DNA from: an uncultured Pseudomonadota bacterium
Lineage (GTDB): Bacteria; Pseudomonadota; Alphaproteobacteria; JACZXZ01
Assembly: GCA_963749075.1 (NCBI GenBank)
Contig: CAVVLJ010000017.1
Span: 608,001 to 672,000 of the forward strand
Length of the DNA stretch: 64,000 bases
Direction of reading: 5' to 3'
This document shows, in pieces, positions 4,941-51,408 of this stretch. The notes below the pieces were generated by a model that saw only the letters and a list, made by a program, of their open reading frames with translations, made no database searches and was not told the DNA's origin. Positions within the stretch are counted from its first letter, which is position 1; the number at the start of each line of letters is the position of its first letter. A program made the position numbers and the translations under genes.

Positions 4941-5140
4941 TCATGGGCCGCAGGCTTCCGGCGGCCAGGAGAAGAGACTCGCTTGGCCCCGTTGCGGAGC
5001 AACCGATCGCGCGCCGCTGACATCGCCGCCGCAGTGCAGCTCCATTATCGCCTGCGCCGCATTGATCCAAGGCGAAGTTCAGGGCTAAGCTCCCGGCGCG
5101 CGCAGGGTCTCGGGCGGAGCGGTGGCAGCCGGAGAACGGC

Positions 5141-8946: not shown

Positions 8947-9591
8947 TCACTCCGCCCCATCGGCGCTCTCGCTGTCCTCGACCTCCTCGTAGCCGTCGAA
9001 CATCGCCTTGTACTTCTCGAGCGGCGTGCGGCCCAGCGTTCCGAGATAGGCATGGAACGAGATATAGAACGCGAAAAAGATGAAGATCAGCACGTGCACC
9101 GTATCGACGACGCGCACCCCGCCGAAAAAGGTCACCGCACCCGAAAAGCGCGTGAGATCCCAGAGCAGGATTCCCGTGACGCACTGAATGGGAAGCACGA
9201 TGAGCATGACGATCTGGTACGCCACGCTTTGCAGCGGATTGAACTTGCTGTAGACGCTCACCTGATGCGGATCGGGCGCTCCCTTGAAGATGCCATAGCC
9301 GTAATAGAGGAGCTGGCGCAGGTTGCCGCGGTAATATTCGATCGGATTTAGCTCGGGGTGGTAGACCCTGATCTTGTCGGAGAAAAGATAGAAGAAAAAC
9401 CACACGAAGAAGTTGGCGATGAGGACGAAGCCGATCCAGTTGTGGACGGCGACGGCAATCCTGAAAGGGACCACGTCGATAAGGCCAACGTAGCGGATCT
9501 GCACGCCGGTGAGAACCATCATCACGCAGGCGACCGCGTTGATCCAATGCCAAATCCTCACGGGGAGGGGGTGAACGTAAATCCGATGCAT
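8947..9591 (-). CDS. Di-heme cytochrome b (HydC/FdnI/PhsC type), CbcB-like
   Basis: MHRIYVHPLPVRIWHWINA, VHNWIG, KFNPLQ, VHVLIF, SFHAYL; four TM helices; starts 6 nt after the multiheme gene. Confidence 0.88.
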   Translation of the reverse strand: MHRIYVHPLPVRIWHWINAVACVMMVLTGVQIRYVGLIDVVPFRIAVAVHNWIGFVLIANFFVWFFFYLFSDKIRVYHPELNPIEYYRGNLRQLLYYGYGIFKGAPDPHQVSVYSKFNPLQSVAYQIVMLIVLPIQCVTGILLWDLTRFSGAVTFFGGVRVVDTVHVLIFIFFAFYISFHAYLGTLGRTPLEKYKAMFDGYEEVEDSESADGAE

Positions 9592-9596
9592 CTTGC

Positions 9597-10908: not shown

Positions 10909-11041
10909 CCCGCCGCCTGAGCCGGGCTTCCTCACGTGCGTCTCCGCATTTTCGTCTCGGTCCCCTTGGCCGCCGCCGGGGCACGCCACGCCCACCTTCC
11001 GATCCTTGCGCCTCTTCTGCACGCGAGCGCTTCGCCGGTCC

Positions 11042-11055
11042 TTGATGCAGATCAA
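11042..11055. promoter_or_regulatory. Perfect FNR/FixK box upstream of the nonaheme-cytb-hemG genes
   Basis: TTGAT-GCAG-ATCAA, intergenic. Confidence 0.8.
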
Positions 11056-11219: not shown

Positions 11220-12026
11220 TCAGCCCTGGGCTCCCTTATTGCGCCAGGCCTTACCGCCGATCCACACCAGCATCGCCAACCCGATCAGCGGGAAGAGCAG
11301 GATGTAGGCAAGTGCCACGAACGGCGCGGCGAGGAACATGACCATATTGTAGAGGGACCGGCCGATGGTCCTGCCCGCCTTCTCCTGGCCCGCCGCCCCG
11401 GGTGCCGCTAACGAAGCCCTCCGCTTGCGCCAACCCTGCACGGCCGTCCGGGCCAGCAAGCCCAACCCGATGAACGGGAAGAGCGCGATGTAGGCGAGCG
11501 CCACGAACGGCGCGGCAAGGAACATGGCGACGTTGTAGAGGGACCGGCCGATGGTCCTGCCGGCGCTCTCCTTGCCGACCGCTGCGGGCTGCGCCGCTCC
11601 GCCGGGCTCCGGCGCCGCAACGGCAAGCTGCGGCAGCGTTTCCGCGGGAGGCGGCAGCGCTGGCGCAACAGCGGCATCCAGGCTCGTCTCGATCATTTCC
11701 GGGGTAAGCGGCTTGCGCAGGAACGCGCGCACGCCGGCGGCCTCCGCGCGCGCCTGATTCTCGGCCGTGCCATAACCGGTGATGATCACGACCGGAGTCC
11801 ACGGGCGCTTCGCACGCAGCTGCTCCGCCACCTCGAGCCCGTCCATTCCCGGCATCTTGATGTCGGTGAACACGGCCTCGTAGTCCTCTTGCGAAACCTT
11901 GTTGAGCGCCACCTCGCCGTTCTCGGCGCTGACAACCACATAGCCTTTCCGAGTGAGTACCCGGTCAAAGCTCTTGCCGATGACTGGATCGTCGTCCACC
12001 ACCAACACTTTTCTGATTGCGTTCAT
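11220..12026 (-). CDS. Response-regulator receiver with duplicated C-terminal hydrophobic segments and no DNA-binding domain
   Basis: VLVVDDD, FTDIKMPGMDG, ITGY, FLRKP; then two copies of AGRTIGRSLYNxxMFLAAPFVALAYIxLFPxIGL. Confidence 0.85.
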   Translation of the reverse strand: MNAIRKVLVVDDDPVIGKSFDRVLTRKGYVVVSAENGEVALNKVSQEDYEAVFTDIKMPGMDGLEVAEQLRAKRPWTPVVIITGYGTAENQARAEAAGVRAFLRKPLTPEMIETSLDAAVAPALPPPAETLPQLAVAAPEPGGAAQPAAVGKESAGRTIGRSLYNVAMFLAAPFVALAYIALFPFIGLGLLARTAVQGWRKRRASLAAPGAAGQEKAGRTIGRSLYNMVMFLAAPFVALAYILLFPLIGLAMLVWIGGKAWRNKGAQG

Positions 12027-12051
12027 GGCTTTCTCCTCTTCTTGCAGCGGG

Positions 12052-12501
12052 TCAGGAGGCGAGACTGCTCGTCTCTCCGTAGGGTTCCATTGTCGCGCCG
12101 GGGCTCCAGAGGTCCTTGCGCAGCGACCATTTCTTCTGGGTTACCGCGCCGCTGGCGGCGGTGATGACCTCGGACGGACCGACCGGCTTGGCGAGATAGT
12201 CGTAAGCGCCCAGCCGCACCGCCTCTTTGGCACTCTCGACGGTGGGATAGCCCGTGATCACGACCACCTCGCTTTGCGGGCACGTTTGCTTGATCGACTT
12301 CAGGACCGTGAGGCCATCCATGCCGGGCATGCGAAGGTCGACCAGCACGACATCGAAGCGCTTGTGCTCCAATGCCTGCAGCGCATCCTCGCCGCTCGCG
12401 GCGGCTTCCACGTTGTAATGGGCGGCCTGCAAGGACCTCTGAAAGCTGAGACGCACCACTTCGTCGTCATCAACGACCAGAACTTTGATTTGCTCGCTCA
12501 T
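12052..12501 (-). CDS. Stand-alone response-regulator receiver protein
   Basis: VLVVDDD, VDLRMPGMDG, ITGY, YLAKP; AAAGGG RBS before ATG 12501. Confidence 0.88.
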   Translation of the reverse strand: MSEQIKVLVVDDDEVVRLSFQRSLQAAHYNVEAAASGEDALQALEHKRFDVVLVDLRMPGMDGLTVLKSIKQTCPQSEVVVITGYPTVESAKEAVRLGAYDYLAKPVGPSEVITAASGAVTQKKWSLRKDLWSPGATMEPYGETSSLAS

Positions 12502-12546
12502 GTCGGTCCCCTTTGGCACCGGTTCGCTACTCTCGCCTTCATGTAT

Positions 12547-13193: not shown

Positions 13194-14306
13194 ATGGAAC
13201 GTCTTATGCTCGCCGTCCTGCTGTCGGTGGCGCTGCTGCTCGCTTGGGACGACCATGCGTCGTCGGCAGCGGATATTGCCGCGGGCAAGATGGTGGCCAA
13301 GCAGCAATGCGCAGCGTGCCACGGCCTGGATGGCAAGGGCATTGCCCCGGGGATCCCCAACCTGGCGGGACAGCGCGACAGTTATCTGCTTGCCGCGCTG
13401 AACGAGTACAAGCAAGGCCTGCGAATTCACGCCGCCCTGACGACGATGGCCGAGCGCCTGAGCAAGGCGGACGAAGAGAACGTGGTTGCCTATTACGCCA
13501 GCCTGCCGCCGGTCGCGGCCGCGGCAGAAAAGCAGCCGGAAGCCGTTTCTCCCTATGAGCACGGAAAGGCGCTGGCGCAGGCCTGCGTTCGGTGTCATGG
13601 CGAAAACGGCAACAGCACGACTCCCGGCACGCCCAGCTTGAGCGGCCAGCAGCCGGGCTATCTAAGCACCGCGATCCAGGAGTATCTCACCGGAGCGCGC
13701 GAGCCCGCCCCGATGCACGCGCTGATACGGGGCCTGAAGGGACTGGATGTGGAGAGCCTGGCGCTCTATTTCGCCTCCCAGACCCCGGTGCCGCGTCCCG
13801 CGCCGGCCATCGGCAATGCTGCGGCAGGCGAGCCGCTCACCGGCCTGTGCGGCGGATGCCACGGCTTTCACGGCGTGAGCACCGATTCGGCGACGCCGAG
13901 CCTGGCGGGCCAGGATCCCCAGTATCTCGTGAACGCCGTCAAGGCCTACCGCTCCACCCGCAAGTATGCGCCGATGCAACGTGCCGTCGCCGGCGTCAGC
14001 GACAAGGACGCCGAGGACATCGCAGCATTCTACGCCGTCCAGAAATTAACCCCGGCCGAGCACGGGCAGGCGCTGGTTCAGGATCTTGTCGACAAATGCA
14101 ATCGCTGTCACAGCCCTGAGGTGAACAATCCGACGCTGCCGATCCCGCATATCAGAGGGCAGGACGAGGCGTATCTCGCCATGGCGATGAGGACGTACCG
14201 CGAGGGCAAGCGGCAAAGCTCCGTGATGCACAACATGATCTTACCCTACGGCAACGCCATCATGGAAGGCTTGGCTTCCTATTATGCCAATCAGCCGCCG
14301 GACTAA
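13194..14306 (+). CDS. Four-domain cytochrome c4/c553-type periplasmic protein
   Basis: Start MERLMLAVLL with signal peptide; CAACH, CVRCH, CGGCH, CNRCH, each followed by a PxLxGQ..YL-like motif. Confidence 0.9.
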   Translation: MERLMLAVLLSVALLLAWDDHASSAADIAAGKMVAKQQCAACHGLDGKGIAPGIPNLAGQRDSYLLAALNEYKQGLRIHAALTTMAERLSKADEENVVAYYASLPPVAAAAEKQPEAVSPYEHGKALAQACVRCHGENGNSTTPGTPSLSGQQPGYLSTAIQEYLTGAREPAPMHALIRGLKGLDVESLALYFASQTPVPRPAPAIGNAAAGEPLTGLCGGCHGFHGVSTDSATPSLAGQDPQYLVNAVKAYRSTRKYAPMQRAVAGVSDKDAEDIAAFYAVQKLTPAEHGQALVQDLVDKCNRCHSPEVNNPTLPIPHIRGQDEAYLAMAMRTYREGKRQSSVMHNMILPYGNAIMEGLASYYANQPPD

Positions 14307-14611: not shown

Positions 14612-15922
14612 ATGAAGGACTTGAACGATCCGGCTCCCCGCAAGGGGCTCGTCGCGCGCGCTCTGGCCGTCATGCCGCTGTGCCGTACGCCTCTCACCCT
14701 CGCGACATCCGTCATTGCGGCAAGCATCCTCGGGATGCCGTTCCTGGTCGGCTATTCGCCGAGTGCTGCAGCTCAACCCGTCACGATCCAGCCCGGCAGC
14801 GCCGAGGAGCTCCGAGCCGTGTTCGCCAACGCCGAGGACGTGGCGGACGGCAAGCACCTCGCGGACACCTCCTGCGCCAGCTGTCACGGCGCGATCGGTA
14901 TCAGCGCCAAGCCGGGCGTGCCCAATCTCGCCGGCCAGCGGCCAGCCTACCTTTACCTCGAGCTGAAGGCCTACCAGTCGGGTGCGCGCGGCGACAGCGC
15001 GATGAACGACGCCGTCAAATTCCTGAGCGACGCCGCGCTGTTCAAGGTGGCCGCCTACTACGCCAGCCTCGATCCCGCAGAGCCCGGTGCGGCGAGCGGC
15101 GCGAAGCCCCCCGCTGCCGAGGCCGATCCGGTCCAGGCCGGCAAGGCCGCAGCGGCCGGCTGCGCCGGCTGCCACGGCGAGGCCGGCGTCAGCAAGACGG
15201 CGGGCATGCCGAGCCTCGCCGGCCTCGACCCGAAATACCTCGAAGCAAGCATGCAGGCCTACAAGGGAGGGCAACGCAAGAGCGAGCTCATGAAGCCGAT
15301 GGTCGCGGCGCTCGGCGATGCGGATATGAATAACATTGCGCTCTACTATGCGCTGCAAAAGCCCGCCCGGGCCGAGACCCCAGCGGCCGGAGACCCGGCC
15401 GCGGGCAAGGCCGCGGCTGCAAGCTGTGCCGCGTGCCATGGCGACCACGGCGTCAGCGCGAACCCAGCATTCCCGAGCCTCGCCGGTCAGGATGCGGAGT
15501 ACTTCGCGAGCGCGCTCCACGCCTATAAGGACGGCGGCCGCGAAGACGAAACAATGAAAGGCCAGGCGGCGTCGCTTGGCGACGGCGCCATCAAGGACCT
15601 GGCGGCCTATTACGCGAGCCAGCAGCCGCAGGAGCCGAAGGTGCAGAAGCCCCTGAGCGCCGCCGAATGGGCGCAGAGGTGCGACCGCTGTCACGGCGTC
15701 AACGGCAACAGCACCGATCCGAGCTTGCCGGCCTTGGCCGCACAGCGCGCGGACTATCTGGAAAAAGTGTTGCATGCCTACCGGACGGGCGCGCGCAAGA
15801 GCCCGCAGATGGCCGCCATGTCCGGCGCGCTGGCCGACGAGGATATCGAGAACCTGGCGGCCTACTACGCGCGCCAGAAGGCGCGCGCCGTCGTGTACGT
15901 GATGGTGCCGCTCAAGAAGTGA
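14612..15922 (+). CDS. Second four-domain cytochrome c4/c553-type protein
   Basis: CASCH, CAGCH, CAACH, CDRCH with PxLAGQ motifs and distal Met; start may be a later codon. Confidence 0.9.
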   Translation: MKDLNDPAPRKGLVARALAVMPLCRTPLTLATSVIAASILGMPFLVGYSPSAAAQPVTIQPGSAEELRAVFANAEDVADGKHLADTSCASCHGAIGISAKPGVPNLAGQRPAYLYLELKAYQSGARGDSAMNDAVKFLSDAALFKVAAYYASLDPAEPGAASGAKPPAAEADPVQAGKAAAAGCAGCHGEAGVSKTAGMPSLAGLDPKYLEASMQAYKGGQRKSELMKPMVAALGDADMNNIALYYALQKPARAETPAAGDPAAGKAAAASCAACHGDHGVSANPAFPSLAGQDAEYFASALHAYKDGGREDETMKGQAASLGDGAIKDLAAYYASQQPQEPKVQKPLSAAEWAQRCDRCHGVNGNSTDPSLPALAAQRADYLEKVLHAYRTGARKSPQMAAMSGALADEDIENLAAYYARQKARAVVYVMVPLKK

Positions 15923-16063
15923 GCGGGCCGCGGGGATCGTAATCCGGGGCCGGTGCCGCGTCCGGCGCATTGGCCGTAGCGAGCAACACCGAGGCCGCAG
16001 CGCCTAAGCCGCCGCATGAGCCCTGCCCGTGCGCTCCGGCTCGCAAGAGCGAAGGAACCGACC

Positions 16064-16852
16064 ATGAGTGATGTGCGACTGCACCGGCTTTATCATCATT
16101 TTTCGGAGCTGCCATATAGCCAGCGCGTCGTGTACACGGCGACGCTCCTCATATTCGGGCTGGGCTACCTCTTCGCCTTGACCTACGTCTATCACACCTA
16201 CGCCGGGCGGGCCGGAGGGAACCCCAAGATACTGTCGTACGAGGACCTCGTCGTCGCCTACAGCGGCAGCGGAAAGGGCTCGCGACTCGAGACGGCCCTG
16301 CGCGGACCGATGTCGACCATGCTGCCGCGCGACGAGCTCGACTCCATCATCGCCTGGGTGCGCCAAGGTGCCACGAGGGCAAAATACGAGACAGACATCA
16401 AGCCGGTGCTCGACAAGCGGTGCATGGCCTGCCACGACGGCAGCAATCCGCACCTTCCGAACCTGAACGGATACGAGAACCTGACGAAAATGACCGAGCA
16501 GGACACCGGCGCCAACGTCTTCACGCTGGTGCGCGTGTCGCATATCCACCTGTTCGGCGTCACCTTCATCTTCTACATCATGGGCATGATCTACAGCCAC
16601 GCCTACGTGCGGCCCGTGTGGTTCAAGTGCGCCGTCGCCGCAATGCCGTTCCTCTGCGTCTCGATGGATGTCAGCTCTTGGTATTTCACCAAGCTCTATC
16701 ATCCGTTCGCCCTGCTCGTGATGCTCGCCGGTGCCCTGATGGGCGCCTCCTTCGCGCTCATGTGGGTCACGTCGATGTATCAGCTGTGGTTCTCCAAGAC
16801 GCCTTCGCCGGTCGCCCTGAGGGAGAGCGGCGATATTCCCAACGTTGACTGA
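16064..16852 (+). CDS. Integral membrane protein with one heme c motif, function unknown
   Basis: N-terminal TM helix, periplasmic loop with CMACH, then VRVSHIHLFG and three more TM helices; AAGGA RBS. Confidence 0.75.
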   Translation: MSDVRLHRLYHHFSELPYSQRVVYTATLLIFGLGYLFALTYVYHTYAGRAGGNPKILSYEDLVVAYSGSGKGSRLETALRGPMSTMLPRDELDSIIAWVRQGATRAKYETDIKPVLDKRCMACHDGSNPHLPNLNGYENLTKMTEQDTGANVFTLVRVSHIHLFGVTFIFYIMGMIYSHAYVRPVWFKCAVAAMPFLCVSMDVSSWYFTKLYHPFALLVMLAGALMGASFALMWVTSMYQLWFSKTPSPVALRESGDIPNVD

Positions 16853-17021: not shown

Positions 17022-17405
17022 CTACTTCGCCTTCTCCTTGAGAAAGGCGATGACGTCCTGGATGTCTTGATCGCTCTTGAGAGCGCCGGCCAACATCTTG
17101 GTGCCGGGAACGTCGGCCTTCGGGTCCTTGAGGAACTTCGCCAGGCTCGCCTCGTCCCAGGTGATGCCGGACTTCATCATGGCATCCGAGTATTTGAAGC
17201 CTCCGCCCGTGCCCGCCTTGCGTCCCATGACGCCGTTGAGGCTCGGGCCCATCCCGTTCTTGCCTTGATCAAGGCTGTGGCAAGCCTTGCATTGGCCGGT
17301 GAAGACCTTCTCGCCGTTCGCCACATCGCCGGCCGCAAGCGCCTCGCCGGCCGCTACGGAAAACGCCAGCGCGGTCGTGAGCGCAACGAGGTTAAGCTTG
17401 AGCAT
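17022..17405 (-). CDS. Cytochrome c2 (class I), copy 2
   Basis: Signal peptide, GDVANGEKVF, CKACH, GPSLNG, FKYSDAM, PGTKM. Confidence 0.92.
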   Translation of the reverse strand: MLKLNLVALTTALAFSVAAGEALAAGDVANGEKVFTGQCKACHSLDQGKNGMGPSLNGVMGRKAGTGGGFKYSDAMMKSGITWDEASLAKFLKDPKADVPGTKMLAGALKSDQDIQDVIAFLKEKAK

Positions 17406-17488
17406 TTCTCTCACCCTTTCAAGATCGCGGCGCTCCCGGTCGCCATCGGTCGCGCGGCAATTGAGCACCCGCAGCTGCGTTGGGGAAG

Positions 17489-17873
17489 CTACTTCGCTTT
17501 TTCCTTGAGGAAGGCGATGACGTTCCTGAATGTCCTGATCGCTCGAGAGCGAGCCGGCCAGCATCTTGTTGCCGGGAACTGCGGCCTTCGGGTCCTTGAG
17601 GAACTTCGCCAAGTTCGCCTCGTCCCAGCTGATGCCGGATTTCATCATCGCATCCGAGTACTTGAAGCCCGCGACCGAGCCCGCCTTGCTTCCGACGATG
17701 CCGTTAAGGCTCGAGCCCATCCCGTTCTTACCCTGATCGAGGCTGTGGCAAGCCTTGCAATGGCCGGCGTAGACCTTCTCGCCGTTCGCCACATCGCCGG
17801 CGGCGAACGCTTGGCCGATGGCGAGGGAAAGCGCAAGCGCGGCCGTGAGTGCTACGAGGTTCGACTTCAGCAT
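17489..17873 (-). CDS. Cytochrome c2 (class I), copy 1; +1 indel near 17523
   Basis: Close paralog of copy 2 (CKACH, PGNKM). Removing one base restores DVIAFLKEKAK-TAG as in copy 2. Confidence 0.88.
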
Positions 17874-17971
17874 TGTTCGTCCCCCTTTGAGATCGAGTTG
17901 CCTTCGGTTTCCATCGGCCGGGCGACAGTCCCGGCCGATGTTGCGGCGGCGATCAAGGCGCCAGGCAGGCA

Positions 17972-18386
17972 TCAATTGTCCTTGGCGCCCTGAAATATCC
18001 AAGTCCAGATGGCATTGCGATCGCAGCTCGACAGCTGCTTCTTGCCGTGCGGCATGCGGAGTTCGGGCGAGGCGCGCCAGTTGAGCAGCCACATCAGATT
18101 GCTGGCATCCGGATCGTGGGGCACGACCATTGGCCCGAACTTGGTGCCCTTCAACAGTCCCGCGTAAGTCGTCAAGTCCAGCCCGCTCTTGTCGTATCCC
18201 TCGCCGCCCGGTTGGTGGCAGGAGATGCAGCGTCCCTTGAAGATCGGGAAGATATCCTCGGAGAAGCTGACCGTATCTTGCGCCGCGCACGCCTCGCGTG
18301 ACCGCATCGTCAGATTCTGCGGCCGCCGCGGCTAGAGCGAGAGCGGCGGCGAAGATCGCGGCGTGGTATTTTCTCATGACCGTCAT
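17972..18386 (-). CDS. Small exported monoheme cytochrome c (planctomycete cytochrome C-like domain); +1 indel near 18313
   Basis: Signal peptide MTVMRKYHAAIFAAALALAAA in one frame; VSFSEDIFPIFKGRCISCH...LDLTTY...RMPHG...WIFQGA in the next. Confidence 0.75.
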
Positions 18387-18603
18387 CTTTCATCAGCCCC
18401 GGCGCCTCAACGATCCATCGCCGCCGAATGCTCCCCGTGCGGCTCGCGGCGCATTCCCCGAATGGCGACTACGCCTTTGTAATTGAAGCGCTTATCGGCA
18501 ATCGGCAGTTTCCATGGGTCGGCGCGGTCTTTGTAGTGCCAGGGCCGTAGAATCGGGTCATACCAGAAGACTTTCTCGTTGCCGCGCCGCGAGCGGCGCG
18601 ATC

Positions 18604-20094
18604 CTATGCCGCTCTCAGCGGCTTCCTGTTGCCCGTCCCCTCCGTCCGTGGTGCTATGGCCTCCGCCAGATCGGCGACTCCTTTGCGGATGTCCGCCTCC
18701 GACAACGCCCCATATCCCAAGAACAACGTGTGATTGGCATTTTCGCACCACGCGCGCTCCTCCGCGACGAGATCCGGCAAGGTGCAGACGCCGACCTCGC
18801 TCGCGCGCGCCAATCGCCGCACCTCGGGTGCCGGCGGGAAGCCGGGCGGCAGGAACCACGCCACGTGCGCCCCGGCCTCGGTACCGGCGAGCCGGACCTC
18901 GCCGAAATGTTGGCGCAGCGCAGCCCATAGGCCATCGCGCCGAGCCAGATGGATCTTGCGGACGCGGCGCAGGTGGCGGGCAAAGCCGCCGCTCTCGATG
19001 AATTTGGCCAGGCTGACTTGCTCGAGCCACGCCGGGCCATTCCCGACGAGCGCCTTGAGCGAAAGCATCGGCGCCACCAGCTCGGGCGGCACGACCATGT
19101 AGGCCAGGCGAAGCCCGGGGCCGAGCGTGCTCGTAAAATCGCCGACGAAGACTACCGTCCCAGCGACATCGAGGGCTTGCAGCGGGGCCGGCGGCACGCC
19201 GCGGTACCAAACGCCGCTGCCGCATTCGTCCTCCAGGATATGAGAACCGGCCTGCCGGGCCCATGCGATGAGGCGCTTGCGCCGTGCCGGCGGCAACGTG
19301 CCCCCCACCGGATATTGGTGCATGGGCGCGACATAGGTGAGCGTCACCGGACCGTGCGGCAGGCGATCCACGTCCAAGCCATGCTCGTCCACCGGCACCG
19401 GCACCAGCTCGGCGCCCTGGCTCGCCAGCGCTCTCGCCACCTCGTCCGGGCAGGTACATTCGACGACGACGCGGCTGCCGCGCGGGGCGAGATGGCGGGC
19501 CAGGATGTAATAGGCTTGATGGCGATTCGAGACGATCACGATTTGCTCCGGCGGCACGGCTATGCCGTGGCTCACGATCAGCCAGTCGGCGATGGCCCGG
19601 CGCAGGCATTCGAGGCCGGGCGGCGGATCGAATGCGACCCGCGCGCGGTAGTGCTCGATGGAGGGCAAAATGAGCTTCCGCCAGACCTTGAGCGGAAAGA
19701 GCTGGCCATCGAAGTGACGCGGGTCGAAGTCGATGGCGGGCGGAGCCGGTACCACCATTTGCGCTGCGCCGCCGCCTCGCTCGCTCCGCGATGCCGTCTC
19801 GCGTCTTGCCTTGTCCGCGCCGGCGCCCGGGCGCCTCGCGATCGCGTCGGCCGGCGGCTCGCTGCTGACGAAGGTGCCGACGCCAGGCCGCGTCTGCAGA
19901 TAGCCTTCGGCGATCAGCTGCTCGTGAGCCAGGAGTGCGGTCGTCCGCGACACGCCGAGCTGCTCGGCCAATTGGCGCGTCGCCATCATCGGCGCCCCGG
20001 GCTTCAGGCGGCGCTCGGCGATGAGCGCCCGCAGCTGCTCGTAAATCTGCACCTGCAGGGGCCTGGTCGAGCTGCGATCGATCTTGAGCACCAT
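18604..20094 (-). CDS. MocR/GabR-family regulator (GntR HTH plus PLP aminotransferase-like domain)
   Basis: PLQVQIYEQLR..., LGVSRTT, EGYLQTRPGVGTFV, HQYPVG, ILEDE, PGLRLAYMV. Confidence 0.9.
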   Translation of the reverse strand: MVLKIDRSSTRPLQVQIYEQLRALIAERRLKPGAPMMATRQLAEQLGVSRTTALLAHEQLIAEGYLQTRPGVGTFVSSEPPADAIARRPGAGADKARRETASRSERGGGAAQMVVPAPPAIDFDPRHFDGQLFPLKVWRKLILPSIEHYRARVAFDPPPGLECLRRAIADWLIVSHGIAVPPEQIVIVSNRHQAYYILARHLAPRGSRVVVECTCPDEVARALASQGAELVPVPVDEHGLDVDRLPHGPVTLTYVAPMHQYPVGGTLPPARRKRLIAWARQAGSHILEDECGSGVWYRGVPPAPLQALDVAGTVVFVGDFTSTLGPGLRLAYMVVPPELVAPMLSLKALVGNGPAWLEQVSLAKFIESGGFARHLRRVRKIHLARRDGLWAALRQHFGEVRLAGTEAGAHVAWFLPPGFPPAPEVRRLARASEVGVCTLPDLVAEERAWCENANHTLFLGYGALSEADIRKGVADLAEAIAPRTEGTGNRKPLRAA

Positions 20095-20170
20095 GGACGG
20101 GGCTCCTGACGACGGTCACTTGGTCTCCGAATGTCGGGATCGTCTTTAGACCCGTCGAGGCAATCGAGCA

Positions 20171-20184
20171 TTGATGTGCATCAA
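20171..20184. promoter_or_regulatory. Perfect FNR/FixK box upstream of the MocR-family gene
   Basis: TTGAT-GTGC-ATCAA, intergenic. Confidence 0.8.
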
Positions 20185-20239
20185 CACCGCACAGCAAGCG
20201 GCGCTCGCGCTTCGCATCAAGCAAAGAGCAGAGCGTCAG

Positions 20240-20983
20240 TCAGCGGGTCACGACCAGCCGCTGGTAGAGTCCGCCGAAGAAGGACGTGTTGCGCAAAGCT
20301 TGGCCGGCCCAGGGATGCGGCAGGCAAGCCGCGAGGTCGCCGCGCCACAAGTCGGGCGCGAAGGGCTCGAGCACCGCCAGCACGGGAAGCCAGAGATAGC
20401 GCAACGGGTGCCAACGGCTCGGCCGGGCATAATCGACGACGAGGATGGTGCCGCCGGGCCTGACCACGCGGAACACCTCGCTGAGCGTGCGCCGGCGCAC
20501 CTCGGCGGGCTGCTCGTGCAGCAGAAAGAAGACCATGGCGCGGTCGTAACTGGCGTCGGGCAGACCGAGCTCGGCCGAATCCCTCGCCAGCAAGCGCACC
20601 GGAGCGTCCGCCGGCAGCTTCCGCCTGAGGTTCTCGAGCTGGATCGGCAGAATATCGACGATATCGAGCGCCCCGCCGCCGGCGGCGACCCGTTGGCTGA
20701 GCCGGCTCGTGAGATCGCCATAGACGCAGGCCACCTGCAACGTGCGGCCGGATAGCGAATCGCCCAATTCGGAGAGCGCCGCGTCGCGCAGGCGGCGATA
20801 ATTCCCCCACAGGATCAAATTGACCAGCCATTGGCGCTCGAAGAGGCGAACCGCCTTGGGATGGATATAGGCCCACCAATAATGGGCCTTGAGATAGTGC
20901 GGCACTCCGTCGCCGGCGCCCGTCGCCGGGAGCGTCGCCGAATCAGCAGGAGGAGCGATGCCGGAATGTGGGGTCATGCCCAA
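20240..20983 (-). CDS. rquA: Rhodoquinone biosynthesis protein (methyltransferase-like)
   Basis: VPHYLKAHYWWAYIHPKAVRLFERQWLVNLILWGNY, QVACVYG (degenerate SAM motif), FFLLHEQP, FFGGLYQ: RquA signature. Confidence 0.9.
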   Translation of the reverse strand: MGMTPHSGIAPPADSATLPATGAGDGVPHYLKAHYWWAYIHPKAVRLFERQWLVNLILWGNYRRLRDAALSELGDSLSGRTLQVACVYGDLTSRLSQRVAAGGGALDIVDILPIQLENLRRKLPADAPVRLLARDSAELGLPDASYDRAMVFFLLHEQPAEVRRRTLSEVFRVVRPGGTILVVDYARPSRWHPLRYLWLPVLAVLEPFAPDLWRGDLAACLPHPWAGQALRNTSFFGGLYQRLVVTR

Positions 20984-21175
20984 TTCATCTCCCTCTCAAA
21001 GCGGCCGCTCTGGCAGCGGCGGAAACTGCGATCGGCCGTCATTCCACCCGCCTCGCGCTGCATCTTCTGGACGACCGGGACATCGCCCGGTGCGTTCCTC
21101 GCTCCCTCGGAGGCCCGCTGAGCGGCGGACGAACCCGCCAAACATTAGCTTACGAATTTCAGCGGGCGTTCTGCT

Positions 21176-21189
21176 TTGATTTAGATCAG
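21176..21189. promoter_or_regulatory. FNR/FixK-type box (1 mismatch), rquA side
   Basis: TTGAT-TTAG-ATCAG in the rquA/hemA divergent intergenic region. Confidence 0.65.
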
Positions 21190-21274
21190 CCGCAGCTTAC
21201 CGAAGAAGCGCCTCGGACGCCGGGCTGTTTTGAGGCGCGGTTCCTGCTTGGCGGGTCCGTCGGCATCCAATAGA

Positions 21275-21288
21275 GTGATCTAGATCAA
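21275..21288. promoter_or_regulatory. FNR/FixK-type box (1 mismatch), hemA side
   Basis: GTGAT-CTAG-ATCAA upstream of hemA. Confidence 0.65.
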
Positions 21289-21421
21289 GCGGCACGGCGT
21301 CCGCGAAGGCTAGCATATCTCTCGTGGTGCGGCGATATGTTGCGTTTTCATGTGCAGCGGGCGGCCCCAAGCGCCGAAGATGCGCGGGTCCGGCTCCTGT
21401 TCCAGGATCGGGCGGGTGAAT

Positions 21422-22636
21422 ATGGACTATGAGCGCAGATTCCGCGACGTCCTCGGCTCGCTGCAGTCCGAAGGGCGTTACCGCGTCTTCGCCGATCTCG
21501 AGCGCCGGGCCGGCGACTTTCCGCACGCCCTGTGCCACGGAGCCGACGGCCGGACCCGCGAAATCGTGGTCTGGTGCAGCAACGACTATCTCGGCATGGG
21601 CCAGCACCCGCTCGTGATCGCCGCCATGAAGGAGGCCCTCGAGACCTGCGGTGCCGGCGCCGGGGGCACGCGCAACATCTCCGGCACCAACCATTACCAC
21701 GTGCTGCTCGAGCGCGAGCTCGCCGAGCTGCACGGCAAGGAGGCGGCCCTTCTCTTCACCTCGGGCTATATCTCCAACGAGGCGACGCTCTCGAGCCTGA
21801 GCCGGCTGCTCCCGGGCTGCATCGTCTTCTCGGACGAGCGCAACCACGCTTCGATGATCGAGGGTATCCGCCACGGCGGCTCCGAGAAGCGCATCTTCCG
21901 GCACAACGATCCCGCCGACCTGGAGCGCCTGCTTGCCGAGGCCGATGCGGCGGCGCCGAAGCTCGTCGCCTTCGAAAGCGTCTATTCGATGGACGGCGAC
22001 ATCGCCCCCATCGCCGAGCTCTGCGCTGCCGCCGAGCGCCACGGCGCCCTCGTCTATCTCGACGAGGTGCATGCGGTCGGGCTCTACGGCGAGCGCGGCG
22101 GCGGCATCTCGGAGCGCCAGCGCGTGGCGCAGCGGATTCCGGTGATCGAGGGCACGCTGGCCAAGGCCTTCGGCGTGATGGGCGGCTACATCGCCGGCTC
22201 GGCAGCACTCGTCGACGCGGTGCGCAGTCACGCCGCGGGCTTCATCTTTACGACCGCCCTGCCGCCGCACGTGGCTGCCGGGGCGCTCGCGAGCGTGCGC
22301 CACCTCAAGGGAAGCGGGCGCGAGCGCGCGCAGCACCAGGAGCGCGCCGCCGCGCTGAAGCGCCGGCTCGCCGAGGCCCGCCTCCCGCTCATGCCGACGG
22401 AGAGCCACATCGTGCCGCTGCTCGTGGGCGACGCGCGGCTCTGCAAATCGGCTTGCGACGAGCTCCTCGAGCGCCACGGCATCTACGTGCAGCCGATCAA
22501 TTACCCGACCGTGCCGCGGGGCACCGAGCGGCTGCGCCTGACGCCAAACCCGCTGCACACGGATGCGCACATGGACGCGCTCGTTGCGGCACTGGCCGAG
22601 GTGTGGAGGCGCTTCGGCTTGCAGCGCGCGGCCTAG
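21422..22636 (+). CDS. hemA: 5-aminolevulinate synthase
   Basis: [61 protein letters not shown]. Confidence 0.96.
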
Positions 22637-23359: not shown

Positions 23360-23748
23360 TCGTCGTCGACGCTTCGGCCCTGCTCGAAGTGCTCCTTCGC
23401 ACGCCAACGGCAAAAGCGGTGGAAAGGCGGCTGTTCGAGGCTCGCCGGACGCTGCACGTGCCACATTTGCTCGACGTGGAGGTGGCACAGGTGATCCGCC
23501 GGTACGCGGCAAACGGCGAGATCGACAGCGAACGCGGCCGCGGGGCTCTCGCCGACCTGGCGGACCTTCCCTTGCACCGGTATCCGCACGACTTCCTTTT
23601 GCCGCGCGTTTGGGAATTGCGGAACATTCTCACGGCCTATGACGCCGTCTACGTCGCCCTTGCCGAAGTGCTCGACGCTCCGCTCCTCACGCGCGACCGA
23701 GCCCTCGCCGCCGCGGCCGGCCATCATGCGCGGGTCGAGCTGGTGTGA
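23356..23748 (+). CDS. vapC: VapC-family PIN-domain toxin
   Basis: MIVVDASAL, EVAQV, TAYDAVYVALAE, LLTRD. Confidence 0.9.
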   Translation: MIVVDASALLEVLLRTPTAKAVERRLFEARRTLHVPHLLDVEVAQVIRRYAANGEIDSERGRGALADLADLPLHRYPHDFLLPRVWELRNILTAYDAVYVALAEVLDAPLLTRDRALAAAAGHHARVELV

Positions 23749-23985
23749 AAGCCTCCCGATCCGCGGAGCGCCGCACTCGGAAGCAGCGCTTCTTCGAACG
23801 GCCGACAGCGCTGGAATGGCCCGGCGGGCCGTGGCGTAGGTTTGGCCTGCCACCCGAAGCCCCGGAGGGGCGAAGGGTGGCGGGCCACGACCGACGATGT
23901 GAGCGCTACGTCTACGCCATCTGAGAGTTTCCGGTTGTGCCTCGTACTAAGGAGTGGTACATAGGTTCATTTGCCGAGCAGCCGA

Positions 23986-24282
23986 ATGATCGTTAGCTTT
24001 CGGGACGAGTGGCTCCGCGCCTTATTCGTAGAGGACACGCGGTCGCGGCACATCCCGTCCGACCTCGAAAGCCGGCTCTTCCGCAAGCTCCAGATGATTG
24101 ACGACGCGACGACCGATCAGGACTTGCGGGTGCCGCCCGGCAATCACTTCGAGAAGCTGCGCGGCAATCTGTCGGGCTTCCACTCGATCCGCGTCAGCAG
24201 CCAATGGCGGCTGGTCTTCCGCTGGGACGGCAGCCAGGGCGAAGCAGAAGACGTCTATCTCGACGATCACAGCTACAGATGA
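23986..24282 (+). CDS. higB: HigB/RelE-family toxin
   Basis: DLRVPPGNHFEKLRGNLSGFHSIRVSSQWRLVFRW...DDHSY; toxin-first gene order. Confidence 0.9.
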   Translation: MIVSFRDEWLRALFVEDTRSRHIPSDLESRLFRKLQMIDDATTDQDLRVPPGNHFEKLRGNLSGFHSIRVSSQWRLVFRWDGSQGEAEDVYLDDHSYR

Positions 24283-24290
24283 GGCGACCC

Positions 24291-24599
24291 ATGCTGACGA
24301 CGAAGCGCAAGCCGGCCACGGTCGGCGAGATTCTGATCGAGGAGTTCATGCAGCCGATGGGACTGACGCAGGCTGCTCTGGCCGAGGCGATGGGCGTTCA
24401 GCGCAAGCACGTCAACGAGCTGTGCAATAACCGCCGGAACGTGACGGCGGCGACGGCGCTTATCCTCGCCCGCGTCTTCGGCAACAGCCCGGATTTCTGG
24501 CTCAATGTGCAGCGCCGGAGCGATCTGTGGGACGCGATGAACAGTCCGCGCGCGCGCGCGCGGATCGAACGCGCGAAGCCATTGGGTGCGGCAGCGTGA
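24291..24599 (+). CDS. higA: HigA-family HTH antitoxin
   Basis: GEILIEEFMQPMGLTQAALAEAMGV, FGNSPDFWLNVQ. Confidence 0.9.
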   Translation: MLTTKRKPATVGEILIEEFMQPMGLTQAALAEAMGVQRKHVNELCNNRRNVTAATALILARVFGNSPDFWLNVQRRSDLWDAMNSPRARARIERAKPLGAAA

Positions 24600-24630: not shown

Positions 24631-24723
24631 TGGCGGAGCGAGAGGGATTCGAACCCTCGATACGGGTTAACCCCGTATGACGGTTTAGCAAACCGTTGGT
24701 TTCAGCCACTCACCCATCGCTCC
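24631..24723 (-). tRNA. tRNA-Ser(GCT)
   Basis: GGAGCGATGGGTGAGTGGCTGAAACCAACGGTTTGCTAAACCGT...GGTTCGAATCCC...CTCCGCCA; long variable arm, encoded CCA. Confidence 0.97.
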
Positions 24724-24783: not shown

Positions 24784-25443
24784 TCACGCCTCGGCCGGCT
24801 TGCGGTAGCGGAGGATGCAGGCGTAGTCGCGGACGACCGGGGTGATGGCGAGCAGGCCGTGCTCGCGCGCGGCGACGGTCTCGAGGTAGTGGGCGAGCCC
24901 GGCGCGCGGGGTCACCTCGAAGAGGGCGAGCCAGCGGCGCAAGAGCGCCCGGAACCAGCGCGGCAGGCCGCGCTGCTCGGAGAAATCGACCACCGCCAGG
25001 GTGCCGTCCGGGGCGAGGGCGGCGAGCGCGCGCTCGAGCGCGCGCTCCCAGCCCGGCATCATCGAGAGCGCGTAGGAGAAGAGCACCGCGTCGAAGGGGC
25101 CCTCGAGGCCGAAGGTCGCCGCTGGGTCGAGCTCCTCGGCAAGCGCCCGGCGGATGCGGATGCGCCCCTCGAGGCCGTGGCGGCGGATCTTGGCCTCCGC
25201 ACTCTTGAGCATCTCCGCCGAGGCATCGATGCCGTAGACGGCGGCGCTGGGATAGCGGCGCGCGAGCACCACGAGATTGCGCCCGGTGCCGCAGCCGACC
25301 TCGCAGACGCGCGCCCCGTCGGCGAGCGGGAGCCCCGCAATCAGCCGGTCGCGGCCGAGAAGGTAGAATTTGCGCGAGAGGTCGTAGATGTGCCGCTGGC
25401 GGCGGTACATGCGGTCCATGCGCTCAGCAGCCCCGCCGCTCAA
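24784..25443 (-). CDS. btaB: Betaine lipid N-methyltransferase; start TTG 25443 or ATG 25419
   Basis: MDRMYRRQRHIYDLSRKFYLLGRDRLI, EVGCGTGRNL, FSYALSM; directly after btaA. Confidence 0.88.
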   Translation of the reverse strand: MSGGAAERMDRMYRRQRHIYDLSRKFYLLGRDRLIAGLPLADGARVCEVGCGTGRNLVVLARRYPSAAVYGIDASAEMLKSAEAKIRRHGLEGRIRIRRALAEELDPAATFGLEGPFDAVLFSYALSMMPGWERALERALAALAPDGTLAVVDFSEQRGLPRWFRALLRRWLALFEVTPRAGLAHYLETVAAREHGLLAITPVVRDYACILRYRKPAEA

Positions 25444-25447
25444 GGGC

Positions 25448-26662
25448 TCAGCCCTCCCGCGCATAGATGTGGAAGCCGCCGTAGATCGCCGAGCGGTCGC
25501 GGCGGAAGAGGGCTGCGGCATGCTCGCGCGCGGCATGCCAGGTGGCGAGGAACTCGGCCGGCAAGGCTGCCTCGAGCGGCGAGGCGCTGCCCGCGGTGCG
25601 GAAGATGGCGAGCGCCCGGGGGCGCGCGGTGCGCTCGATCTCGCGCCAGAGGAGACGCAGCTGCTCCGGCCCCATCCAGTCCTGGGCATCGAGCAGCACG
25701 TAGCGGTCGACGCTGCCGGCGGGCTCGCGCGCGAGGAGGTCGGTGAGCGACGCGAGCTCGGTGCGCACGCGGCCGGCGCGCTCGGCGATGACCGGGAAGG
25801 AGGCGGGCCTCAGGTAGTCCGGCACGGGACCGCGCGCGGCGATGCCGTAGCGGCGGCCGAACGCCTGCCAGGCGAAATAATTCTCCTCGATGGGGAACTC
25901 GCAGGCGAGGCGCCGCAGCCGCTCGCAATAGAGCTGGGCCAGGTCGCCCATGGCATCCTCGCGCAGTGCCGCGAACTGGCGCGGCGGGATGCCCAGGCTG
26001 TAGAGCACGGTGGGGATGCGGCAGAGTGCGCGGATGGCTGCCGAGTCGAAGACGGGCGCCACCCATTCGTCGAAGAGGCGCACCTGCTCCTCGAGGCTGG
26101 TGGCCCCGAGCATGCGCGAGGGATCGCCGCCCGAGAGCCGTGCCAAGCCGTGGAGGAAGCCGATGAAGTGCGCCTGCACGCCGTGCCGGTAGAGACCGCT
26201 CGCGAAATAGCCGAGCCGGCGGCGGCCGAAGGGCGAGCGCCCTTCCCAGAAGGCGCGCGTCTCGTCGTCGAGATGGGGCTGGAGGTGGCGCCGGTAGATG
26301 TCCCACGCCGCCGGGTCGGTGCCCTCGCCGAAGAGGCGGTAGAACGTGCCGTGGTCGGGCAGGTGCCGCGCCGCCGCGAGCTTGAGCCGCGTGAGGGCAA
26401 GATGGGCGGGATTGAGATCGACCGCAATGATCTCGCGCGGATCGGCGAGGAGATAGTTGAGCACGTTGCAGCCGCCCGACGCGATGGTGACGACGCGGCA
26501 GGAGGCATCGAGGCTGAGTGCCGCGAGATCGACCGCCGGGTCTTCCCAGATCTGGTTGTAGACGAGCCGGCCGAACCAGAAGGCGAAGAGGCGCTCGAGC
26601 AGGCCCTTGCTGGTGTCGGAGCGGCCCTCGAAGACCGCCTCCTTGAGGAGTGCCGTGGTCAT
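25448..26662 (-). CDS. btaA: Betaine lipid 3-amino-3-carboxypropyl transferase (DUF3419)
   Basis: LVYNQIWEDP, IASGGCN, ENYFAWQAFGRRY, LLDAQDWM, DRSAIYGGFH. Confidence 0.92.
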   Translation of the reverse strand: MTTALLKEAVFEGRSDTSKGLLERLFAFWFGRLVYNQIWEDPAVDLAALSLDASCRVVTIASGGCNVLNYLLADPREIIAVDLNPAHLALTRLKLAAARHLPDHGTFYRLFGEGTDPAAWDIYRRHLQPHLDDETRAFWEGRSPFGRRRLGYFASGLYRHGVQAHFIGFLHGLARLSGGDPSRMLGATSLEEQVRLFDEWVAPVFDSAAIRALCRIPTVLYSLGIPPRQFAALREDAMGDLAQLYCERLRRLACEFPIEENYFAWQAFGRRYGIAARGPVPDYLRPASFPVIAERAGRVRTELASLTDLLAREPAGSVDRYVLLDAQDWMGPEQLRLLWREIERTARPRALAIFRTAGSASPLEAALPAEFLATWHAAREHAAALFRRDRSAIYGGFHIYAREG

Positions 26663-27732
26663 GGGCGGCGCGATCCTTCCGCAGCATTGAGTGGCTCGGC
26701 GCCGCCACCCTCTGCCGCAGCGCACGGCCGCGAGAGTGCCGCGGCGCCGATGTTGCCGAGGAACTGCTCGGTGGCGGCAGCCCAGGAGAAGGAGAGCGCG
26801 TGGGCGCGGCACGCCTCGGGGGCAATGCCGCGCGCCGCCTCGACCGCCGCCCCCAGGTCCTCGGAAAGCGCACCCGTGCCGCTCGTCCCGATCACGTCGA
26901 GGGGGCCGGTGACCGGAAAGGCGGCGACGGGAAGGCCGCTCGCCAGCGCCTCGAGGAGGACGAGGCCGAAGGTGTCCGAGCGGCTCGGGAAGACGAACAC
27001 GTCGGCCGCGGCATAGCAGGCGGCGAGCGTCGCGTCGTCGACGAAGCCGGTGTAGCGCGCGTTCGCGTACTTCGCCTTGAGCCTGGCGAGCTGCGGGCCG
27101 GCGCCGACCACGTATTTCGTGCCCGGGAGGTCGAGGCGGAGGAAAGCCTCGATGTTCTTCTCGACGGCGATGCGACCGGCATAGAGGTGGATGGGACGGG
27201 GCCCTGCCAGGAAATCCCTGGCATGCGGGCGGAAGAGCGTGCCGTCGACGCCGCGCGACCAGAGGGCGAGGTTGACGAAACCGCGCTCGGCCAGGCGCCG
27301 CGTCAGCGTCTCGGTCGGCACCATCACGGCGCGCGCGGGTGCGTGGAAGCGGCGCATGAAGGCGTAGCCGGGCCCGCGCGTGAAGGGAAAGCGCGCCTCG
27401 AGGTACTCGGGGAAGGCGGTGTGATAGGCGGTGGTGAAGGGGATCGAGCACCTGAGGCAATGGCGGCGCGCCGCCATGCCGAGCGGCCCCTCGGTCACGA
27501 TATGCACGGCATCGGGCGAAGCGGCATCGATGCGGCGCGCGACCCGGCGGGCGGGCAGCACCGCCAGGCGGATCTCCGGGTAGCTCGGGCAGGGAACGGT
27601 GCGAAAGCCGTCGGGCGAGATGACCTCGGTCTGGTGGCCGAAGAGCTCAAGGTGGCGAATGGTCTCCTTGAGCGTGCGCACCACCCCGTTCACTTGCGGC
27701 GGCCAGGCGTCGCTGATGAGCAGGATCCTCAC
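26659..27732 (-). CDS. GT4 glycosyltransferase, Agt-like glycolipid synthase
   Basis: RILLISDAWPPQVNGVVRTL, TEGPLG, AYHTAFPEY, GRIAVEKN, FPSRSDTFGLVLLEALASG; stop overlaps the btaA start. Confidence 0.85.
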   Translation of the reverse strand: MRILLISDAWPPQVNGVVRTLKETIRHLELFGHQTEVISPDGFRTVPCPSYPEIRLAVLPARRVARRIDAASPDAVHIVTEGPLGMAARRHCLRCSIPFTTAYHTAFPEYLEARFPFTRGPGYAFMRRFHAPARAVMVPTETLTRRLAERGFVNLALWSRGVDGTLFRPHARDFLAGPRPIHLYAGRIAVEKNIEAFLRLDLPGTKYVVGAGPQLARLKAKYANARYTGFVDDATLAACYAAADVFVFPSRSDTFGLVLLEALASGLPVAAFPVTGPLDVIGTSGTGALSEDLGAAVEAARGIAPEACRAHALSFSWAAATEQFLGNIGAAALSRPCAAAEGGGAEPLNAAEGSRRP

Positions 27733-51406: not shown

Positions 51407-51408
51407 AG

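Follow-up and report, generated by a model that had tools for sequence, protein, structure and literature searches.

A single copy of rquA, the gene for a family of enzymes that convert ubiquinone to rhodoquinone, lies at the edge of a porin-cytochrome gene cluster in the genome of an uncultured alphaproteobacterium (G000; 5.49 Mb, 23 contigs, 96.3% complete, 5.15% contamination). The gene is located at positions 20240-20983 of a 64,000-nucleotide stretch of contig C17, which is the whole stretch of DNA that was analyzed and is referred to here as the window. Our best explanation of the locus, to which we assign a probability of about one half, is that a horizontally gained and working-looking rquA would feed a shared anaerobic pool of rhodoquinol. 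The original prediction, made from the sequence of the window, was more specific and proposed that a ubiquinone-based host uses rhodoquinone in place of menaquinone for extracellular electron transfer (EET). This proposal gains partial support from a genome without men/mqn genes or FrdC/FrdD whose sole multihaem cytochrome cluster adjoins rquA, and loses support from a same-genus genome (G003) that keeps the cluster without rquA, from a chance-level co-occurrence of the two systems, and from the prevalence of fumarate reductase genes beside rquA.

The gene itself has been identified with near certainty, and the original prediction had named it correctly. The only minus-strand open reading frame (ORF) of 20240-20983 encodes 247 amino acids and aligns to the RquA equivalog model NF038261 along its entire length (1-218 of 218), scoring 286.8 bits where the cut-off is 175. 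The ATG at 20977, which is preceded by GGGAGA, is the likelier start. A class I methyltransferase fold is indicated by the Pfam matches Methyltransf_25 (47.6 bits) and Ubie_methyltran (42.7 bits), and the UbiE/MenG models score just 25-40 bits on this ORF, far under their own cut-offs. The stretch Q83-A85-C86-Y88-G89-D90 is invariant across 13 RquA homologues; motif I, which binds S-adenosylmethionine, is described as deviating in RquA from that of other class I methyltransferases (Stairs et al. 2018, PMC5953543).

The quinone complement of the host is consistent with a role for this enzyme. UbiA, the sole ubiquinone marker checked, is present (TIGR01474, 365.4 bits against 275.45), in agreement with the ubiquinone-based host that had been proposed. 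For the men and mqn pathways, the genome holds no MenA match, a best MenD hit of 75 bits against a cut-off of 244, and no PF02621 match for MqnA/D. The predicted lack of frd genes in the window is likewise borne out, as none of its ORFs matched a fumarate reductase family; in the genome, FrdC has no PF02300 match, and the FrdC and FrdD of two betaproteobacterial loci (L113 and L114) gave no tblastn hit. Complex II is represented by a single SdhA/SdhB-like pair at C21:581.9-584.4 kb. Reported potentials of rhodoquinone, ubiquinone, and menaquinone are -63, +100, and -80 mV, respectively (PMC6529003). A swap of menaquinone for rhodoquinone within the genus was considered and rejected, with MenD and MqnA absent in all five same-genus genomes. 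Four of these five carry a MenA-like gene (81-101 bits against a cut-off of 102) that is not found in G000; this orphan gene, located at L116 7241-8311 in G003 and present also in G001, G002, and G005, adjoins SufS-like and RtcB-like genes.

The porin-cytochrome cluster next to rquA contains an MtrB/PioB-type outer-membrane porin (PF11854, 410.8 bits on the full-length ORF, L119 2933-5167) that is 70% identical to its G003 ortholog, and a decahaem cytochrome gene that is co-directional with it and ends 55 bp ahead of the porin start. All five ORFs of the genome with at least four CXXCH motifs sit in this cluster, 4-19 kb from rquA. A genome-wide search for an MtrC/OmcA outer decahaem cytochrome found no further ORF with at least eight CXXCH motifs, and the conduit is therefore taken to be of the two-component MtoAB/PioAB-like form. 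The original prediction had placed rquA inside the cluster, which has to be corrected: the gene forms its edge. The last cytochrome ORF is 1.85 kb away, beyond a MocR-type regulator, the distance to the porin and decahaem genes is 18 kb, and unrelated genes lie on the opposite side.

The accompanying statement that the cluster stands under FNR-like boxes fared better. The pattern TTGAT-N4-ATCAA, with at most one mismatch, occurs five times in the window, where 0.27 occurrences would be expected, and none of 100 shuffles reaches five. Genome-wide, 95 such putative boxes are present, including 14 perfect ones, and the 19 kb that holds these five is the second densest stretch. Two boxes in the divergent rquA-hemA intergenic region lie upstream of the rquA ATG, with their centres at ~205 and ~305 bp from it; the nearer is the more plausible candidate for rquA. 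In G003, a box is found at the equivalent decahaem site and a perfect box at the equivalent hexahaem-operon site. Because of this enrichment and these equivalents, shared low-oxygen control is plausible, and we lean toward the view that rquA and the cluster are regulated together; in Rhodospirillum rubrum, rquA is 8.4-fold up anaerobically (PMC6529003). The densest run of boxes in the genome is six in 19 kb at C17:526-550 kb, ~80 kb upstream of the window.

rquA belongs to a strain-specific segment of ~6.7 kb that comprises the MocR gene, rquA, an extra 5-aminolevulinate synthase (ALAS) paralog, and a HigBA pair, and that ends at a tRNA-Ser gene. None of the ten relatives searched (five same-genus and five same-family genomes) has rquA, and the DNA of MocR and rquA (18600-21350) has no match in the five same-genus genomes. 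The G003 cluster is syntenic from the porin through the c2-like and PSCyt1 genes, with 68-94% protein identity for most genes and with two CbcL-like copies that are 49-54% identical to the window protein. This synteny stops near 17.9 kb and restarts at the tRNA-Ser, which is 97-98% identical in the same-genus genomes. The hemA locus of the relatives is syntenic with C20:659-680 kb of G000, and the window ALAS is therefore an extra paralog; as DNA matches, three ALAS copies lie at C20:~668.5-669.7 kb, C17:629.4-630.6 kb (the window copy), and C17:370.8-372.0 kb. Composition was considered as a sign of transfer and set aside, since the GC content of the segment (0.62-0.73) is like that of the genome (0.667) and is thus uninformative. 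The closest RquA proteins (85-86% identity; L019, L120, and L121) are encoded directly after frdABCD, and the RquA gene of L122 (81% identity) adjoins a MocR homologue. We consider it probable that this lineage gained rquA horizontally, and the segment is read as a putative later addition to an older, genus-conserved cluster. MocR-family regulators accompany rquA in the window, in L053 (8070-9524), and in L122 (3-755), in differing orientations. A START/Polyketide_cyc protein, presumably with the fold of the ubiquinone-binding Coq10, is encoded beside rquA in L019 (7799-8275), L120 (4548-5012), L122 (903-1454), and L038 (3002-3619) and is absent from the window segment. A tRNA-His(atg) called by ARAGORN at 23603-23698 was not confirmed by Rfam.

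The neighborhood of rquA in other genomes was surveyed in the best 80 of 581 confirmed rquA loci, drawn from one-genome-per-species contigs with 1.23 Mb of flanking sequence and a radius of 10 kb. The scan was built on 13 closer RquA entries, so the 80 loci are biased toward near RquA relatives (57-85% identity). EET-type genes (porin-cytochrome, CymA-like, or CbcL-like) occur within the radius in 10 of the 80 loci, and the linkage, found also in the genomes G514 and G603 of an order-level sample, is not unique to G000. DmsE-type decahaem genes are present in L036, L053, L068, and L072, MtrB_PioB porins (Pfam) in L036, L053, L068, and L086, MtrC/OmcA in L082, CbcL-like genes in L038, L068, and L086, NapC/CymA-like genes (under the subfamily cut-off) in L023, L036, L040, L053, and L072, and a PdsA-like gene together with a membrane monohaem protein in L023 and L073. 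Compact arrays include L053 (porin, decahaem, CymA-like, MocR, rquA), L073 (PdsA-like, membrane cytochrome, rquA), and L113, where cytochrome c, MtoA, MtoB, Frd genes (FrdA, FrdB, and FrdD scanned), and rquA share one strand. The linked loci occupy at least seven separate places on a quick RquA tree in which many forks are poorly supported, and MenA is absent in four of five genomes with the linkage. An ORF with at least four CXXCH motifs lies within 10 kb in 13 loci, and one with at least eight in 6; three of the 13 are the reaction-centre cytochrome PufC and one is an unassigned pentahaem protein. In a class-level sample, rquA was found in 27 of 401 genomes and a decahaem gene in seven; two of these seven have rquA over the cut-off and two more a sub-threshold RquA-like gene, a weak overlap of small numbers in which some genomes are kin. 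Physical linkage of rquA to EET-type genes recurs, in a minority of lineages, and does not amount to a general dependency.

Several side observations accompany this survey. In three alphaproteobacterial loci from metagenome-assembled genomes (L075, L092, and L095), rquA directly follows pufC at ~200 bp, and in L095 a hemA gene lies ~2.4 kb beyond the rquA end. Phototrophy as the reason for rhodoquinone was rejected, as G000 contains no homologue of the ORFs that precede rquA in the puf-linked loci L075 and L095. Proteins of the EB_dh type (ethylbenzene dehydrogenase-like haem) are encoded beside CbcL-like genes near rquA in L086 (9006-10319) and L038 (3776-5581) and may relate to the DOMON-type partners mentioned by Baker et al. 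2022.

Part of this association is already in print. According to Stairs et al. 2018 (PMC5953543), rquA is often located within 15 genes of genes for complexes I-III, cytochromes, ubiquinone, and haem, and an operon linkage of rquA with complex II was suggested. In Supplementary file 1 of that paper, MtrB/PioB occupies position -1 relative to rquA in Burkholderiales bacterium JOSHI_001, where frdABCD follows at +1 to +4 and multihaem cytochromes lie upstream. The porin is likewise at -1 in Noviherbaspirillum denitrificans, and a Rhodoferax ferrireducens record has ccmB-ccmI genes one gene after rquA. Baker et al. 2022 (PMC8805035) report frdABCD and ccm beside betaproteobacterial mtrCAB and state that an mtrCAB recipient needs menaquinone biosynthesis genes; neither "rquA" nor "rhodoquinone" occurs in the main text of that paper. 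The claim of an undescribed role therefore holds for the functional idea of rhodoquinone in EET, which was not found in print within the reach of full-text literature searches, and fails for the adjacency of rquA and porin, which is published as tabulated data without an EET link in the supplement of Stairs et al. 2018. The window thus contains a real rquA in a context that partly fits the known pattern of rquA among respiratory and haem genes.

In comparison with characterized systems, the protein resembles R. rubrum RquA and its proteobacterial and eukaryotic homologues in its full-length equivalog match, methyltransferase fold, host ubiquinone gene, and predicted low-oxygen context. Unlike in R. 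rubrum-type systems, the host lacks FrdCD-type fumarate reductase and puf-type reaction-centre genes, and the gene is placed beside a porin-cytochrome cluster and MocR rather than frdABCD. With the frdABCD-rquA(-mtrAB/mtoAB) arrays (JOSHI_001, L068, L072, L113, and L114) the locus shares the vicinity of rquA to a porin, a decahaem cytochrome, and a quinol-dehydrogenase-type cytochrome. In those arrays, however, rquA is a few kb from the porin and decahaem genes and fumarate reductase is present, whereas this window and genome have none and rquA was probably added, in a segment of its own, to a cluster already in place. The cluster is like MtoAB/PioAB and MtrCAB conduits in that an MtrB_PioB porin stands beside a DmsE-family decahaem gene with a putative MtrH/CbcL-like partner, PdsA-like cytochromes, and hemG nearby, the last of which was noted for Albidoferax ferrireducens (Baker et al. 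2022, PMC8805035). It is unlike MtrCAB in a genome that has no MtrC/OmcA-type outer decahaem and a host without menaquinone. As with CymA of Shewanella and CbcL and ImcH of Geobacter, an inner-membrane multihaem cytochrome would oxidize a low-potential quinol; in contrast to the menaquinol-based EET of these organisms, the quinone here would be rhodoquinone, derived from ubiquinone via one enzyme.

The preferred explanation can be set out as a sequence of steps. rquA would have arrived with the MocR-type regulator, beside the extra ALAS gene, between the conserved cluster and the tRNA-Ser. Under low oxygen, a regulator of the FNR/FixK type acting on the boxes would turn on rquA, the second hemA, MocR, and the cytochrome operons. 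RquA would then turn part of the ubiquinone pool into rhodoquinone, and rhodoquinol would be the only low-potential quinol of a host without a menaquinone pathway or an FrdCD-type fumarate reductase. The rhodoquinol pool would serve as a shared anaerobic donor, whose likely sinks are the MtrH/CbcL-type protein, the cytochrome b and hexahaem module, and complex II. That rhodoquinol feeds the porin-cytochrome pathway in particular is a tentative proposal that we rate below even odds; such a coupling is plausible and would not be obligatory for the route.

A number of observations weigh against rhodoquinone as the donor to this route. Same-genus G003 keeps the whole cluster without rquA; since it also has no MenD, no MqnA, and just the orphan MenA-like gene slightly under the cut-off, the cluster therefore persists there on ubiquinone alone. 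Complex II is present in G000 and could reduce fumarate with rhodoquinol; fumarate reduction via complex II is an equal candidate sink. Of the 80 loci, 22 have FrdC or FrdD no farther than 10 kb from rquA, and frdABCD is the commonest neighbor; the nearest RquA relatives (L019, L120, and L121) are flanked by frd, and so are 5 of the 10 EET-linked loci. The idea of a linkage "rather than to fumarate reductase" does not survive as a general pattern, and is so a peculiarity of this genome. In the betaproteobacterial order of L113 and L114 (cytochrome c, (CymA-like), MtoA, MtoB, FrdABCD, rquA), rquA is an frd gene as much as an mto gene. Among 80 metagenome rquA loci (0.40 Mb of flanking sequence, mostly short contigs, with 32 loci of at least 6 kb), FrdA is hit in 20 and an ORF with at least four CXXCH motifs in none. 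A sample of 400 Burkholderiales-type genomes around that of L068, with the seed left out, contains 54 genomes with a decahaem gene and 38 with rquA, and both genes coincide in 5 against 5.1 expected; they are 6-7 kb apart in G514 and G603, ~2 Mb apart in one genome, and on different contigs in two. Electron exchange between the quinone pool and CymA or CbcL-type proteins can run both ways, and iron reducers and iron oxidizers alike have homologues of CbcL/MtrH/MtoC (PMC6295460); given this and the missing MtrC, the direction of the conduit is unreadable from sequence, and an inward, iron-oxidizing conduit would not need rhodoquinone. Finally, the genome carries 5.15% contamination and apparent frameshifts near rquA. 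The 14.5-kb contig C10 is 98% identical to a G003 stretch, while the syntenic C20:659-670 kb is only 78-84% identical, which suggests that part of a second, related organism is present in the bin, in line with the contamination estimate.

These points bear unevenly on the narrower explanations that compete for the same data. Under a dedicated coupling, rhodoquinol would take the place of menaquinol and supply the MtrH/CbcL-type and cytochrome b/hexahaem modules as their specific donor, the ubiquinone-only host would export electrons to Fe(III), humics, or electrodes, and rquA would be a passenger of porin-cytochrome islands. The position of rquA beside the sole multihaem cluster of a genome without FrdCD or men/mqn argues for it, as do the compact arrays of L053, L113, and L073, the lack of MenA in four of five linked genomes, the closeness of the potentials of rhodoquinone (-63 mV) and menaquinone (-80 mV), and the fact that R. 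ferrireducens makes rhodoquinone and reduces Fe(III) (PMC6529003). We nevertheless regard it as doubtful in view of the G003 cluster without rquA, the co-occurrence no higher than chance in the 400 genomes, the frd genes in half of the linked loci, the 18 kb that separate rquA from the porin and decahaem genes, and the arrival of rquA at a cluster that was already there. The wider form of this idea, that porin-cytochrome EET in menaquinone-less Proteobacteria runs on rhodoquinone as its low-potential quinone, with rquA as a mobile passenger, has in our estimate a similarly modest chance of being correct. Equally speculative is its corollary that rquA, often with frdABCD and ccm, would let a ubiquinone-only recipient run an acquired Mtr, Mto, or Cbc system outward, and would be a secondary addition in this genome.

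The classical role alone would leave rhodoquinol to complex II acting as a fumarate reductase for anoxic redox balance, and the proximity of the cytochromes would then reflect an island at a tRNA-adjacent hot spot together with the habit of rquA to settle near respiratory and haem genes. The single SdhA/SdhB-like pair, the prevalence of frdABCD in the genome loci (22 of 80) and of FrdA in the metagenome loci (20 of 80), the frd linkage of the nearest RquA relatives, the tRNA-Ser and HigBA boundary, and the finding that many bacteria have rquA at most 15 genes away from genes for complexes I-III, cytochromes, and haem (PMC5953543) are all in line with this account. It is unlikely to be the whole story, given that a single gene has a chance of ~1% of landing within 20 kb of the sole 15-kb multihaem cluster in 5.49 Mb, that the FNR-like boxes are common to rquA and the cluster, and that the same linkage recurs in several lineages. 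A third account, which we hold to be improbable, joins rquA, the FNR-boxed ALAS paralog, and HemG into an anaerobic tetrapyrrole module in which rhodoquinone (or ubiquinone) takes the electrons of HemG without oxygen, so that the cytochromes get their haem. The divergent arrangement of rquA and the extra hemA with two boxes between them, the presence of HemG within the cluster of both G000 and G003, the hemG genes near betaproteobacterial mtrCAB (PMC8805035), and the hemA of L095 at ~2.4 kb from the rquA end would fit such a module. However, hemA lies near rquA in just 1 of the 80 other loci and HemG in none, the HemG of G003 works without rhodoquinone, and a low-potential quinone is a worse electron acceptor than ubiquinone. 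The shared rhodoquinol pool accommodates both EET and fumarate reduction as sinks, and it is this explanation that we prefer.

The features of the window that enter into this argument are collected in Table 1.

Table 1. Genes, putative regulatory boxes, and boundary elements around rquA in the window
Feature	Position	Strand	Evidence or remarks
MtrB/PioB outer-membrane porin, 5' part	1-1167	-	full gene of 744 aa extends beyond the window start
Periplasmic decahaem cytochrome c, DmsE/MtrA/MtoA/PioA family	1222-2193	-	TIGR03508, 303.1 bits against 192.2; 10 CXXCH
Putative FNR-like box, 1 mismatch	2839-2852		between the divergent decahaem and MtrH/CbcL-like genes
MtrH/MtoC/CbcL-type inner-membrane protein	3128-5020	+	7 CXXCH, then cytochrome-b-like membrane domain
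HAMP histidine kinase	5141-6772	+	Pfam; kinase and regulator 88-94% identical to G003
Sigma-54 response regulator	6769-8193	+	Pfam; kinase and regulator 88-94% identical to G003
HemG-type protoporphyrinogen IX dehydrogenase	8258-8893	-	NF008316, 153.8 bits against 142; Flavodoxin_5; likely start 8830
Hexahaem/cytochrome b operon	8947-11055	-	Pfam, NCBIfam
Putative FNR-like box, perfect	11042-11055		upstream of the hexahaem operon
Two response-regulator genes	11220-12519	-	Pfam Response_reg
Two PdsA-like tetrahaem class-I cytochromes	13194-14306, 14612-15922	+	4 CXXCH each
Membrane protein with one CXXCH	16016-16852	+	278 aa; 3 hydrophobic segments over threshold
Two tandem cytochrome c2/c550-like genes, one run-on frame	17022-17873	-	NF043008-like and Cytochrom_C matches
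Small PSCyt1-type monohaem cytochrome c (P0122)	17972-18307	-	PF07635, 40.8 bits against 22
MocR-family regulator (GntR + aminotransferase-like), PdxR-like	18604-20094	-	NF052282, 348.5 bits against 320
Putative FNR-like box, perfect	20171-20184		between rquA stop and MocR start (downstream of rquA, upstream of MocR)
rquA, rhodoquinone biosynthesis	20240-20983	-	NF038261 over full model length; likely ATG 20977
Two putative FNR-like boxes, 1 mismatch each	21176-21189, 21275-21288		divergent rquA-hemA intergenic region
5-Aminolevulinate synthase, extra paralog	21350-22636	+	TIGR01821, 648.6 bits; likely start 21422
HigB toxin and HTH antitoxin-like pair	23971-24599	+	HigB-like_toxin, 102 bits; HTH_3
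tRNA-Ser(GCU)	24631-24723	-	ARAGORN and Rfam; far boundary of the non-syntenic segment

Two modules of the cluster are candidates for contact with the quinone pool. In CbcL, MtrH, and MtoC, a multihaem c domain at the N terminus is joined to a HydC/FdnI-like membrane domain of the b type (PMC6295460). The product of 3128-5020 gave matches to formate-dehydrogenase gamma (36.5 bits) and Ni/Fe-hydrogenase cytochrome b (20.5 bits) that are both sub-cut-off, and its decahaem family matches are also weak; a crude hydropathy scan passed just two segments, and the protein is 52-68% identical to similar proteins in L038, L068, and L086. The operon at 8947-11055 encodes a hexahaem cytochrome c (likely start 10908), an ORF with two CXXCH motifs (9597-10190), and a cytochrome b561/PhsC-like subunit (likely start 9591), and the hexahaem and cytochrome b proteins would form a second candidate module for quinol oxidation or quinone reduction. 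A chromate transporter is encoded downstream of the porin gene.

The distal part of the cluster contains smaller cytochromes. The PdsA-like pair scores 124.8 and 118 bits with NF049874, under the cut-off of 330. The product of 16016-16852 has no Pfam or NCBIfam family match and may be an undescribed inner-membrane component of such electron pathways. Its homologues follow a PdsA-like gene in L023 (16086-16883), L073 (1044-1829), L100 (9980-10780), and G003, an order seen in alpha- and betaproteobacterial loci; the L073 homologue is directly upstream of rquA, and L054 has a 39%-identical homologue ~5 kb from rquA without a PdsA-like hit. In the c2-like tandem, signal-peptide-like starts are found at 17873 and 17405, the first copy is without the expected C-terminus, and an apparent frameshift occurs near 17534; the run-on frame could be a real fusion, a pseudogene, or an assembly indel error. 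A frameshift appears to separate the PSCyt1-type gene from its signal peptide, the signal-peptide-like start at 18386 being in a different frame. A model of one cytochrome c gene at 17022-18386 was rejected, as it merges the two c2-like genes with an off-frame read of the PSCyt1 gene, and tblastn hits to its residues 27-139 are off-frame echoes of the latter. Homologues of P0122 (61-78% identity) are located near rquA in 4 of the 80 genome loci and 10 of the 80 metagenome loci, often at less than 1 kb, and one is present at the cluster end of G003 without rquA.

Past the tRNA-Ser, the window continues with a methyltransferase, a DUF3419 protein, a glycosyltransferase, and housekeeping genes. 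The adjoining methyltransferase and DUF3419 genes (24784-27460, minus strand) presumably resemble the betaine-lipid synthesis genes BtaB/BtaA. A DNA methylase with a BglII-like endonuclease, a second methyltransferase, and a weak DndB-like ORF at 47231-53486 look like a small restriction/defence patch.

Current models of EET take menaquinol as the inner-membrane donor, and many Mtr/Mto-bearing alpha- and betaproteobacteria have only ubiquinone. If a link between rhodoquinone and the porin-cytochrome pathway is wrong, the locus is a further case of the known placement of rquA among respiratory and haem genes. If it is true, one gene whose product yields a quinone with a potential near -63 mV would account for how ubiquinone-only hosts could carry out low-potential mineral reduction, and also for the frdABCD passengers beside mtrCAB.

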